Assembly (NCBI GenBank): GCA_022820545.1
Contig: JAJEFG010000107.1
Span: 29,579-93,578 of the forward strand
Direction of reading: 5' to 3'
Length of the DNA stretch: 64,000 nucleotides
Source of the DNA: Acidobacteriota bacterium
GTDB lineage: Bacteria > Acidobacteriota > Vicinamibacteria > Marinacidobacterales > Marinacidobacteraceae
In this document: positions 15,649-21,530 of the stretch, in pieces
How the letters are laid out: the number at the start of each line of letters is the position of its first letter
Position numbering within the stretch: position 1 is the first letter of the stretch
The notes under the pieces: generated by a model
Databases searched by the model: none
Seen by the model: only the letters and a program-made list of their open reading frames with translations
Told to the model about the DNA's origin: nothing
Translations under genes and position numbers: made by a program

Positions 15649-18600
15649 CTACCGGACGATGATCTCGTCGAGGTAGATCCAGCCGGTTTCGCCCTCGTAG
15701 CGGGCACCGTCGGGACCGGTGGGCCAGGGGGCGGGCACCTCGCCGAGGCCGGTGATCCGGACCCGCACGAGGCGCGCCTCGGCGCCCTCGAGCGCCACGG
15801 TGATCCGCTGGCGGCCGCCCTCGGGCGTTTCCTGCCCCACTTCGGCCGGGTCCTGGACCTCCTGGATCACCGGTTCGGACCAGGACTGACCGTCGAGACT
15901 CGTCGCGACCTCCACCTGCCGCGGGAAATACACCCCCGAGCCGGGGTGCTGGAGGAAGGAGAACTTCACGGACCACACCGGCTGCGCCGGCCCGAGATCG
16001 AGATCGGCGGTGACCTCGTCCGCCCGGTAGCCCTGCCAGTGGCCGCCGCGGCGGTCCACCGAACCCCGGATGCCGTCGGTGAGTCCCGCGTCGCCGGTGG
16101 CCGAGTAGGGCGACGACTGCGGCGGCTCCACGTCCGCCGTCACGCCCCGGGCAAGATGCGCCGCCAGGTTCCGTTCGCCGAAATCGTGGAGTTCGAGGGA
16201 GCGGCCGTAGACGGCGTCCTCCGCCGCCGCGTCAGGAAGCACCAGCCGCGTGAACACGCTTGGGTCGTCCTCCGGGCCGATCGCGCGCATCAGGAAGCGG
16301 AAGTCGAGGTCCTGCGGCCAGAGCGTGTACTCGCGGTGCGGGACCGCGCCCCAGGAGTCGTCTCCCCCCACCCCGGTCTGGCGGAAGTCCACCGCGAGGG
16401 TGATCTCGTCGCGGGGGACGAGGTCCGCCCAGTGGGTGCGGCTCTTGGTCTCCCCCCCGTCGAGGTCGGCGATCCGGTAGGGCAGCGCGGAGAACGAGAG
16501 GTGCGGAAGGCCGATGACCAACAGCCCCGCGCCGGACCCGTCCGTGAACGTCGCCCAGCGCACGTCGGTCCGGGTGCCCGTCTCCTGTGGGCGGACGTAG
16601 GGGTGCGCGAGTTCGGCCACCGGCGACCGGTAGCGGCCCACCGCGGCGCCGGTCCGGCGGTCCCAGTAGTTCTCGTGGGGGCCGCGCCCGTACCACTCCA
16701 CCTCGGACAGCGAGTCGGGCAGCGTGAGGAGCGTCCCGAAACGCGGCATCTCGGGCAGGTCTTCGTTCACGCCCGAGAGGCGAGCGGAGACGGCCACCGT
16801 GCCGTTGCCGAAGACCTCGTGCCGCAGGGTGTAGAAGGCATTCACGGAGCGGAGCGAGAAGCGGCTCTCCACGACGACCCGGAGCCGGTCCTCGTCCTGC
16901 CGTACCAGGACGTCCTCCAGAACCCGCGCCGGCGGACTTGCCGCCGTCTTCCAGACTCCCGAACGCGCCGGGAAGCCGTTCCCGTAGTCGTTGTCGGTCG
17001 GCGCCCGCCAGAAGTTGGGGACCGGGCCGGCGTTCAGGAGGTCCCGCCTTCCCGCCCGGAAGGAACGGAGCGTGCCGAGCTCCCGGCTGAACTCCAGCGT
17101 GAAGCCACGGCCGTTGACCGTCACCGCGTCCTCCGACTCCCGGACCGTCAGGGGCTCCATCGGCGGCGGTTCCGGCGCCGGCTCTTCCTCCTCCTGCTCC
17201 TCCTCCGGGACTTCCGCTTCGCTCTCGGCGGGCTCTTCTCCCTCTTCCTGCTCCTCCTCCTCCTCCGTTTCTTCTTCCTCTTCCTCGATGTCGTCGGGAT
17301 GCACCACGTCCACGAAGAACTGCTCCCACGCCACCTCGTGGCCCGCCGGGACGAGCGGCGCGTCCTCGCGGGTGTGGAAGCGGACGGTCAGCAGGCGCTC
17401 CATCAGGGGCTCGATCCCGGTCTCCGGAATGTCGAAGGAGACGATCTCGGTCCCTCCCGGCGGGGTGGAGATGGGCGGCACCTCCCCCTCGGCGGCAACG
17501 ACCCCGTCCGCGGTCAGTTGCCAGCTTCCCGCGAGGTCGGAGAGATCGGTGAAGGCGCGCCGGTTCTCGACCTCGATCAGCCCCGAGCGGGCGTGGAGCG
17601 CCCGGATCCGGACGGGCTGGTACACCTTCTTGACCTCGAAGGCGTGCGGGTGGGGCTTGCGGTCGGCCGACACCAGCCCGTTCACCAGGAAGTTGCCGTC
17701 GGTGGGGATCCCGGGCGGCCCGATGTCGCCCCCGTAGGCCCAGAACTGCCGGCCCGACTCGTCCTCGCGGAGGAGCGCCTGGTCCACCCAGTCCCAGATG
17801 AACCCGCCGACGAGCTTCGGATCGCTGTCGATCACCTGCCAGTAGTCGGCCAGGTTCCCCACGCTGTTCCCCATGGCGTGCGCGTACTCGACGAGCAGGA
17901 AGGGCTTCTCGGACCGGGAGGCGGCGTAGTGCTCGAGCCAGTAAGGCCGCACGTACATGGGGGCCACGATGTCCACGACGTCCCGTTCGCCGGCCGGCTC
18001 GTAGAGGATCGGCCGCCAGGGATCGTTCTCCCGGATCCACTCCGAGGTGGCGTCGAAGTTCTCGCCGTCGCCAGCCTCGTTCCCGAGCGACCAGATGACG
18101 ATGGATGGGTGGTTCCGGTCCCGGATGACCATCCGTTCGGTGCGGTCCAGATGTGCGTCCCGCCACTCGGGACGCCCGGCGAGGGTCACTTCGGGCAGGA
18201 AGCCCATCCCGTGTGACTCGATGTTCGGCTCGTCCACCACGTAGAGGCCGTACTGGTCGGTCAACTCGTAGAAGCGGGGCAGGTTCGGGTAGTGCGCCGT
18301 CCGGACCGCGTTGATGTTGAGACGCTTCATGAGCCGGATGTCTTCCAGCATCCCGGCCTCGTCCACGACGTGGCCCCGCTCGGGGTCGTGTTCGTGCCGG
18401 TTCACGCCCCGAAGGACGATGGGACGGCCGTTCAGGAGCAACTCGCCGTCCGCCGTCTCGATCCGCCGGAAGCCGATCCGGATCGCGGTGGCCTCGGTCA
18501 CGGCGCCGCCGGGGCCGAAGAGCGACAGGACCAGCCGGTAGAGGTTCGGGGTCTCGGCGGACCAGGCGCGGACGTCGGGGATCGTTGTCGTGGCTCCGAT

Positions 18601-19524: not shown

Positions 19525-21530
19525 TGCGGGAGGGGATCCTCCGGCGGCGCGAGATCGCCGGACTCGATGAACGCCATGATCCCGAAGAGGGCCCCCCACG
19601 AGTGGAAGGGGTCGCTCGAGAGGCGCTCGTCGTCCCCGGTCCCGGTGATCGAGGAGATGTTCTCGCTCACGTAGCCCCGGCGCCGCCACTCCCGGAGAAA
19701 CATATCGAGAGAACGCGCCGAAAGCTCGGCCGCCGTCGCGCGGTCGCCCGCCCGCCGGAGCGCCAGGTGGGTGAGGAAGTTGAGCGGCGGCCAGATGGCG
19801 CCCTTCCAGTAGCGCTGGCGGGGAAACGAGGGGTCGTCGCGCGTGGTCGAAGGGAGCACGAACTCGCCCCAGAACTCCTCCGGGTTGAGCAGGTGCTCCC
19901 GGATGAGCCGGCCGGCGCGCGCCTCGGAGGCCACGCCGGCGAGGAGCGGGTAGAAGAGGGTGGGGGAACGACGCTCGGAGAACCGGTCCAGATCGGTGCG
20001 GTAGTTCAGGTAGTAGCCCCGCTCCTCGACCCAGAGGCCGTCGAGGGCATCGCTGAAGGCGGCGGCGCGTTCCTCGAGCTCCGCCGCTTCCGCCTCGCGC
20101 CCGAGGAGCCGCGCCAGTTCGGCGAGCGCCCGGCAGTCGGCGATGTAGAGGCTGGTCAGTCCCACGTCCTGGAGTTCCAGCACGTTCTTCTCCCGGTTGA
20201 AGGGCACGTCCTCGTACATCGGGGAGTCGTCCATGCCGGACTCGTAGCCGGCGGCCGTCTTCGTGCGCACCACGGGCTCGTCGAAGGGGTTCTTGGCCTC
20301 GTGGGAGCCGTAGGAGAGGAGGCCGCCGTTGTTGCGGGCCTCCGGCCACCACCGGTTCCAGGCGAGCAGCGGATCGAAGGCCGCCTCGAGGAACCAGCGT
20401 TCGGGGAAGCGCCGGTAGACCTCGCGCACCATGATCCCGCCGACCGGCGGCTGGGAGCGGTCCCAGGACTTGCTGCCGTTGCCGCGGTTGTCGTTCGGGA
20501 AGAACCCCTCGGGGGTGTGGCCCCGGAGTTGCTCGACGATGCCGGCGAGCGCGAGGTCGCGGCTTTCGAGCGTCGCGAGGTAGCCGAGGAAGAAGTTGTC
20601 CCACCCGAAGAGCGCCACGCCGCCGTACTCGCGGTTCCAGAGCCGGCCCACGGTGGGGACCACCCGTCCGTGGCGCGGCTCGTGGACGGTGTTCCAGGCG
20701 AAGCCGGAGGTCACCGCGAGCCACGCTTCGGCGAGTTCACCGAACCCGGCGGCGCGAGCTTCGAGTTCGGCGCGGCGGGCGTCGAGGATGCGCCGGAGGT
20801 CACCGGTCGACTTCGGTTCCGTCCCGGGGCGTCCGGTGTAGACGCCGACGGGGCCGGTGAGCCGCACCACCCGGTGCGGGGTGAGATCGCCCGCGTAGGG
20901 ATCGGCCTCCACGGTTCCGGCGACCCGGACGAGCCGCTCGCCTCCCGGCGTCCGGGCCAGGAGGCCGCGCTGCACGGATTCCACCGCGCCGGGCCGGTTC
21001 CAGGCCAGGCCCGCGCTCACCACCAGTTCGAACGGCGCGCCGGGATCAGGCTCCGGAGTCACGAGGACCGCGAGTTCGCCATCCTCGCCGTGTCCCGCTT
21101 CCACGGTGGCGGTGAGGCCGCGCCAGGCGATCTCGAGCCGCTGGTAGGACCCGTCCACCGCGCGGATGCCGGGACGGACCCGTTCCGCGCCCTCCTCCCG
21201 TTTCCCGATGAGCGCCTCCGTCAGGTGGTCCTCTTCGAGGTAGCGGTGCCGCTTGAGGCCGAGGTTCACGCCGAGCCCGTCGGGCAGGAGGACGTAGCGC
21301 AGCACGCTGCGGCTGTCCCAGGTGTTCCAGCCGGTCTGGAGGCGCTCCTGGATGGCGTGGTACTCGGGGACGTCCCCGATCGCGGCGTCGTATTCGGCGT
21401 ACCGGTCCGGCCAGTCGGGGGTGGAGTCTTCGGGTCGGGACCGCGAGCCCGGCTCGGGAACCGCACAGGTGGCGGCAGTCAAGATCGCGCCGAGACAAGC
21501 GGCGAACCCTGCTCCGACGCGATTGTTCAT
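19521..21530 (-). CDS. Glycoside hydrolase, (alpha/alpha)6-barrel GH63-like / trehalase-like family, secreted
   Basis: Clean 669-aa ORF. The N-terminus [25 protein letters not shown] is a signal peptide. Motifs such as [14 protein letters not shown] and WPPLNFL resemble GH63/GDE_C-type glucosidases. Confidence 0.55.

Follow-up and report, generated by a model that had tools for sequence, protein, structure and literature searches.

A LacZ-type β-galactosidase with an acidic loop and a discoidin tail, encoded next to a GH63-like glycosidase in an Acidobacteriota genome

LacZ-type β-galactosidases of glycoside hydrolase family 2 (GH2) have been solved from Thermotoga maritima, Bacteroides thetaiotaomicron, and Escherichia coli; the E. 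coli LacZ enzyme is cytoplasmic. In E. coli K-12, another enzyme of this type, EbgA, is encoded in the ebgR-ebgA-ebgC-ygjI-ygjJ-ygjK run of co-directional neighbors (L090, 3222633-3231239), alongside a transporter and the GH63 enzyme YgjK, and the ebg-ygjK synteny is also reported in Rahnella (PMC8074230). A third point of reference is BT0459 of B. thetaiotaomicron, a GH20 β-N-acetylglucosaminidase acting on complex N-glycans (PMC10154615), which ends in a discoidin-type domain. Here we analyze a 64-kb stretch of contig JAJEFG010000107.1 from an Acidobacteriota bacterium (hereafter the window), in which a gene for a GH63-like glycosidase (gene 1) overlaps the start of a gene for a LacZ-type GH2 β-galactosidase (gene 2), a co-directional GH63/GH2 arrangement like that of the E. 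coli cluster. We consider it likely that these genes form an operon for two exported exo-glycosidases that would act in turn on a galactose-containing glycoconjugate in the envelope of a diderm bacterium. All of the components belong to known families.

Two glycosidase genes and their linkage

By every sequence criterion, the product of gene 2 is a catalytically competent β-galactosidase. An earlier note on this DNA had described a LacZ-type GH2 enzyme of about 1290 residues; its class and size are both upheld, and the domain search that it proposed recovered the GH2 domain set (Table 1). The protein scores 1049 bits against the NCBIfam LacZ-type equivalog NF052611 (beta_gal_Bga2A; cut-off 999) and stays under the cut-offs of the Thermotogales, PRK09525, and EbgA models (816 bits for EbgA). 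Its best match in the PDB is the T. maritima β-galactosidase (6sd0/6s6z, 939 bits); other solved relatives are two B. thetaiotaomicron enzymes (3dec, 3bga) and E. coli LacZ (1dp0 and others, 608 bits). In a pairwise alignment with E. coli K-12 LacZ, which shows 40% identity over 990 columns, all 14 active-site positions checked are identical. E483 and E546, which we take to be the acid/base and nucleophile glutamates, correspond to E. coli E461 and E537; also present are the presumed ligands of Mg2+ (E436/H438, E. coli E416/H418) and Na+ (D220/F612/N615, E. coli D201/F601/N604), together with W577 and W1058 (E. coli W568 and W999). The window enzyme has the five-domain architecture common to the T. 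maritima, B. thetaiotaomicron, and E. coli enzymes. It differs from cytoplasmic E. coli LacZ in carrying an apparent export signal, and its 210-residue C-terminal linker and discoidin domain have no counterpart in solved LacZ-type structures.

The upstream protein had been described as a GH63-like (α/α)6-barrel glycosidase, and our analysis agrees. It matches Pfam PF22422 (MGH1-like GH) at 164 bits; the trehalase and GH63 C-terminal models match more weakly, and the Pfam YgjK_N model does not match. In the AlphaFold2 (AF2) model (predicted local distance difference test, pLDDT, 84), a signal helix and a disordered tether, which runs to about residue 44, precede a β-sandwich (~65-235) and an (α/α)6 barrel (~240-660), the last related to those of YgjK, glucosidase I, and MGH. 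Sequence matches in the PDB are weak (TTHA0978, 50 bits; YgjK, 39 bits). Nevertheless, phmmer aligns the ESGxDD and EN motifs with those of YgjK; both are invariant in 32 family members, and we take the Asp of the first and the Glu of the second to be the catalytic residues, as in YgjK. With 60% mean column identity across the 32 members, and only 19-27% identity and at most 50 bits to E. coli YgjK and Thermus TTHA0978 (GH63, clan GH-G), gene 1 forms a tightly conserved family of its own, apart from these two. Judged by these matches, GH63-like (clan GH-G, YgjK/MGH1-like) is the right label; by analogy, the enzyme is most likely an inverting α-glycosidase, specifically an α-glucosidase.

The two genes meet at CGCAATGATCC, where the ATG of gene 2 and the TGA of gene 1 share 4 nt; a direct read confirms the ATGA overlap described in the earlier note. 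The same junction occurs in three related loci (L002, L003, and L010) and in an unrelated one (L020), and the two genes may be translationally coupled. The Shine-Dalgarno-like GGAGG motif ahead of gene 2 falls within codons for the conserved C-terminal PPE of the gene 1 protein, and this PPE is also kept in homologues that have no downstream GH2 gene. Promoter and terminator scans were uninformative, with 0 promoter-like sites and terminator-like sites at chance level. The GH2 frame stays open for ~400 codons beyond the true start (19524-20724, minus strand), reading across the GH63-like gene, which is encoded in a different frame. We place the start at 19524 because the N-termini of aligned homologues fix it; the open reading frame (ORF) extending to 20724 is a high-GC artefact (the window is ~70% G+C). 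We likewise rejected a GH63-like/GH2 fusion, for which one public record (P0243, 1968 aa) would speak, since that record begins at a wrongly called start farther upstream in the GH2 frame.

Both proteins carry apparent export signals. Read by eye, the N-terminus of the GH2 enzyme opens with a basic n-region, followed by a hydrophobic core of 17 residues and a cleavage-type site, AAA-Q. In homologues the pattern is kept as the sequence varies, in keeping with the Sec signal proposed earlier; in more distant members of the family, a lipobox Cys takes its place. Tat export, suggested by an RRAF sequence in the window protein, was rejected; the twin-Arg is not kept in close homologues. The gene 1 protein had been called secreted: it does appear to have an export signal, but one of the lipoprotein type rather than plainly secretory. 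Its lipobox-aligned Cys lies in LTAATC (read by eye), which aligns with the canonical lipobox LALGAGC of close homologues.

The pairing of the genes is conserved in relatives, consistent with the two-enzyme functional unit proposed in the earlier note. Gene order and the 4-nt overlap are kept in L002, L003, and L010, whose GH2 proteins are 83%, 69%, and 93% identical to that of the window. In a more distant locus (L007, 7001-15323), a GH63-like gene, a GH2 gene with discoidin domain, an SSF Na+/solute symporter gene, and a galactokinase gene form an operon in that order, the two partners being 62% and 50% identical to the window proteins. In L008 the GH63-like gene is directly adjacent to an SSF gene, and a GH2 gene lies 4.5 kb off; in L004 the GH2 gene lies near an SSF gene.

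Among the reference loci listed, YgjK-like genes (21.6-27% identity, all PF22422-positive) also adjoin LacZ-type genes in four unrelated ones, from Citrobacter, Parabacteroides, Tannerellaceae, and an unclassified bacterium (L062, L038, L042, and L020). The YgjK-like proteins of the first three have an obvious export signal at the N-terminus; in that of the unclassified bacterium, a lipobox-like segment appears only after a long N-terminal extension. These data suggest that the linked GH63-like and GH2 genes make up a two-enzyme module that is widespread and has a shared substrate. The linkage across loci also supports the view that the enzymes act in succession on a single substrate and that the hexoses set free are taken up.

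Table 1. Features of the two genes, their products, and their surroundings (positions are those of the window).
Feature	Residues	Window position	Strand	Basis or remark
Gene 1, GH63-like glycosidase	669 aa	21530->19521	-	ORF exact
Gene 1 ESGxDD-containing conserved motif	428-439
Gene 1 YVSEN motif	includes E623
Gene 2, LacZ-type GH2 β-galactosidase	1291 aa	19524->15649	-	ORF exact
ATGA overlap, gene 2 start/gene 1 stop		19521..19524	-	Read from sequence
GGAGG Shine-Dalgarno-like motif		19537-19543	-	13-19 nt upstream of gene 2 start
GH2 signal peptide, cleavage before QP	1-23	19456..19524	-	Read by eye
Glyco_hydro_2_N	70-237			Pfam, above gathering score
Glyco_hydro_2	239-353			Pfam, above gathering score
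TIM barrel	356-640			Pfam, above gathering score
LacZ_4 (PF16353), domain 4	650-737			Pfam, above gathering score
Acidic low-complexity insertion	744-788	17161..17295	-	Composition, codons
Bgal_small_N, domain 5	805-1078			Pfam, above gathering score
C-terminal extension	1082-1291	15652..16281	-	Pfam, profile, AF2, Foldseek
F5_F8_type_C match	1137-1259			Pfam on full GH2 protein
Tandem DUF819 membrane paralogues	377 aa each	11814-12947, 12961-14094	+
Fic/Doc-family gene and ribbon-helix-helix (RHH)-type antitoxin		~23551-24182 (L001 5343-5974)	-	Beyond β-propeller; kept in L002

The discoidin tail and the acidic tract

The earlier note had also assigned an F5/8 type C fold to the C-terminus of the GH2 enzyme, and sequence and structure searches both bear this out. 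The AF2 model divides the extension into a short, helical, low-confidence linker (~1082-1116) and a discoidin β-sandwich (~1117-1291); pLDDT for the C-terminal domain is 84.5. Against a gathering score of 28.2, the full protein reaches 26.4 bits with PF00754 and the isolated residues 1082-1291 reach 30.7; PF00754 also matches 26 of 37 homologues at E ≤ 0.01. When a profile of these 37 homologues was compared with the PDB, the C-domain of BT0459 (6q63) matched along its full length, terminal VDEI motif included (E 1.4e-19), with weak matches to a Clostridium perfringens family 32 carbohydrate-binding module (CBM32; 4lks) and to neuropilin discoidin domains. Foldseek with the AF2 domain gave 230 hits at E ≤ 0.001, the top ones being the BT0459 C-domain, the DDR1 discoidin domain, and many CBM32 modules.

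BT0459 provides the closest solved relative (Foldseek E 1.3e-11). In both proteins the domain is appended to the C-terminus of an exo-glycosidase; the catalytic partner is GH20 in BT0459 and GH2 here, and the domains are ~20% identical. CBM32 modules from C. perfringens GH89, GH84, and GH31 enzymes and the Paenibacillus chitosan-binding DD1/DD2 have the same fold (Foldseek probability 1.0, E ~1e-6 to 1e-7) at 14-20% identity. In the literature we found no reported ligand for the BT0459 C-domain or for the discoidin domain of the window.

All of the listed GH2 family members carry ~200 extra residues past domain 5. Beyond this family, the discoidin profile has 5527 matches at E ≤ 0.001 among 1.84 billion representative proteins; the match is C-terminal in most of the listed full-length hits, and some large proteins have several copies. 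Among ten sampled carriers were three GH20-type hexosaminidases, one GH92 mannosidase, one sialate O-acetylesterase (SASA), one ThuA/HEAT protein, and four with no catalytic-domain match. Given this number of matches, their mostly C-terminal position, and the variety of enzymes that carry them, the discoidin tail is, as far as profile matches tell, a common mobile accessory module of glycan-degrading enzymes; by analogy, it probably helps to hold glycan substrates. Five very large proteins (P0272, P0282, P0288, P0315, and P0376; 1700-2190 aa) contain 5-7 tandem copies of this discoidin subtype. Two of the 80 LacZ-type loci listed from reference genomes extend into a discoidin domain, a count that does not measure the taxonomic spread of the discoidin family, since the scan used patterns general to LacZ and returned at least 80 loci.

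The second unusual feature of the GH2 enzyme is its acidic tract. It had been described as ~70% Glu and as lying between the TIM barrel and Bgal_small_N; we measured 58-62% Glu (62-68% Asp plus Glu), depending on the span counted, and domain 4 intervenes, so that the tract connects domains 4 and 5. This connector, residues 739-790, is 52 residues long compared to 12 in the T. maritima enzyme, and the E. coli connector is similarly short; relative to the family baseline, the net insertion is ~30-40 residues. In most of the best 120 family members, the segment from WEQF to FxLxF spans 38-41 residues; only in the eight closest (≥82% identity) does it span 67-79. The acidic insert is thus absent from 112 of the 120, including P0008 at 78% identity.

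At the nucleotide level, the tract contains 17 GAG and 10 GAA codons, broken up by other codons, that form imperfect GAG/GAA triplet repeats; Tandem Repeats Finder reported weak repeats of period 3, 6, and 9. GAA makes up 37% of the Glu codons in the tract and ~17% of those elsewhere in the gene; for a genome of 70% G+C, such a bias toward A is unusual.

Comparing strains, as the earlier note had proposed, we found 17 distinct in-frame variants of the tract in 21 independently assembled relatives, which led us to reject an assembly or sequencing artefact. Between fixed anchors, tract length in the acidic clade ranges from 27 to 40 residues. Of the 611 residues in the pooled variants, 63% are Glu, one is Arg, and none is Lys. 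The mean scaled hydropathy of the tract, 0.28, lies deep below 0.61, where the charge-dependent boundary between order and disorder falls, so that disorder is predicted. Our literature search on Glu-rich linkers in glycoside hydrolases returned nothing useful.

We read the tract as a recent, length-unstable expansion of a surface connector that is kept acidic and would be dispensable for catalysis, and that may have originated by triplet slippage in one recent clade. Of the three ideas raised earlier, this favors a slippage-prone low-complexity insertion or flexible loop and makes a mineral- or cation-binding tract less probable. Weighing against it, acidity and the near-absence of basic residues persist over ~18% divergence, which could mean that the tract has a selected function, as a polyanionic "bristle" for the solubility of a very large exported enzyme in a saline or host-matrix setting or as a binder of divalent cations or basic host polymers. 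All 17 variants uphold the acidity, and the distal end, which is rich in Pro (EPxPEPPPxEP), has been conserved; a marine sponge is the source of the closest genomes, and salt-associated bacteria make up the wider group. We nevertheless judge selection for such a role unlikely, though well short of negligible: the tract is missing from P0008 and all remoter members, which retain the other domains; its length and sequence drift freely; and the variants are so closely related that shared ancestry alone can account for much of their common composition. It contains no known cation-binding motif, and the six frames of the window hold no second run of such acidic density. A proteome-wide acidic or halophilic signature is accordingly not seen in the window, where the tract is the sole dense run. 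What we see is consistent with a clade-specific, dispensable-looking expansion rather than a new functional domain.

Proposed action of the pair and its alternatives

The window encodes a SurA-type periplasmic chaperone, which fits a diderm bacterium, as well as PBP2, RodA, and other housekeeping proteins. Because the bacterium appears to be diderm and the upstream enzyme a lipoprotein, both enzymes are probably periplasmic or membrane-anchored; the extracellular degradation envisaged in the earlier note was overstated. The gene 1 enzyme would be a membrane-tethered lipoprotein, and the GH2 enzyme would be exported by Sec and soluble in the periplasm. Acting as an inverting α-glycosidase, the first would cut an α-linked hexose, most likely glucose, from an imported or envelope-accessible glycoconjugate; the second, a retaining β-galactosidase to whose substrate binding the discoidin module would contribute, would then release β-linked galactose. 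The freed monosaccharides would be taken up and fed into central metabolism, as suggested by the relative with symporter and galactokinase genes.

Several observations count against this scheme. The window lipobox (A-A-T-C) is non-canonical, and the signals of both proteins were judged by eye. The pairing is absent in GH2 family members at 62% and 47% identity. Finally, no transporter, kinase, or regulator gene lies beside the pair in the window, so its pathway context is borrowed from relatives. A Pfam search for the context of a polysaccharide utilization locus, covering window positions 5649-29524 and the larger genes of the remainder, found no SusC/SusD-like protein, TonB-dependent transporter, or dedicated regulator; the genes around the pair are of housekeeping or toxin-antitoxin type.

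Instead of trimming polymer-borne glycans, the pair might serve to scavenge compatible solutes or small heterosides, for instance β-galactosyl-glycerol and the glucosyl or mannosyl derivatives of glycerate. We regard this as quite improbable. Characterized glycerate-heteroside hydrolases are cytoplasmic, and the known ones lack an N-terminal β-sandwich (TTHA0978, 389-420 aa), whereas the gene 1 protein appears to be exported, has a YgjK-type N-domain, and aligns with YgjK over 433 of its residues. The discoidin domain, moreover, otherwise occurs on enzymes that degrade glycoprotein glycans.

A more specific proposal retains two exo-glycosidases acting in turn and names their target. The GH63-like/GH2 pair, as found in E. 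coli (ebgAC-ygjK), Parabacteroides, Tannerellaceae, and sponge and sediment lineages of Gemmatimonadota/Acidobacteriota, would be a cross-phylum module for glycans in which α-glucose caps β-galactose, such as the Glc-α1,2-Gal-β-O-hydroxylysine of animal collagens. This is a long shot; the collagen idea draws on what ligand work on YgjK is said to have found. If true, it would provide a candidate natural substrate for the Ebg/YgjK system and a route by which sponge symbionts could harvest host collagen glycans.

That the GH2 enzyme has another specificity of its polyspecific family (β-glucuronidase, β-mannosidase, or exo-glucosaminidase), as weak NCBIfam matches to glucuronidase and other GH2 models might hint, is scarcely credible, given that it passes the LacZ-type equivalog with other GH2 models far under their cut-offs, retains the LacZ-specific domains 4 and 5, the Mg2+ and Na+ ligands, and the W999 equivalent, and is co-operonic with galactokinase in one relative (L007).

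Neighboring genes, source, and significance

The neighbors of the pair are genes for a YncE-like β-propeller, a small ORF, Fic and antitoxin proteins, a methyltransferase, and two DUF819 proteins. The small ORF (21692-22177, plus strand) lies between the β-propeller and GH63-like genes; it has no Pfam match and, by eye, a possible D...E-x-K nuclease-like motif. In L003 the β-propeller and GH63-like genes overlap directly, and in L002 another gene, of 359 aa, stands between them. Judged from these three arrangements, the site looks like a variable insertion point. The DUF819 pair and genes for an FAA-hydrolase, a DUF885 protein, and an aminotransferase keep their order in L002 and L003.

The window also forms part of a metagenome scaffold of 86.5 kb (ENA ERZ23491379, KELL22-1 scaffold_338). 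Among the reference loci listed, the nearest genome with an equivalent GH2 gene (93% amino acid identity) is the metagenome-assembled genome "Acidobacteria bacterium SB0661_bin_8". The SB0661 bins originate from the sponge Ircinia ramosa, and the source bacterium, which is uncultured, is probably sponge-associated. The remoter relatives go under the labels Gemmatimonadota, Longimicrobiales, and Candidatus Palauibacter; this group is described as associated with salt and as often present in marine sediments and sponges (PMC10469786).

The combination of GH2 and discoidin domains is common: it occurs in more than 120 clusters annotated "beta-galactosidase" or "DUF4981 domain-containing protein". 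An export signal and a discoidin tail can occur together on a LacZ-type β-galactosidase, an arrangement seen in more than 100 sequence clusters, and our analysis cleanly annotates two enzyme families that are abundant in marine bacteria of the Gemmatimonadota/Acidobacteriota type. The wider lead is the recurrent genetic linkage between enzymes of the LacZ-type GH2 and YgjK-like GH63 kinds across phyla, which includes the ebg-ygjK region of E. coli.

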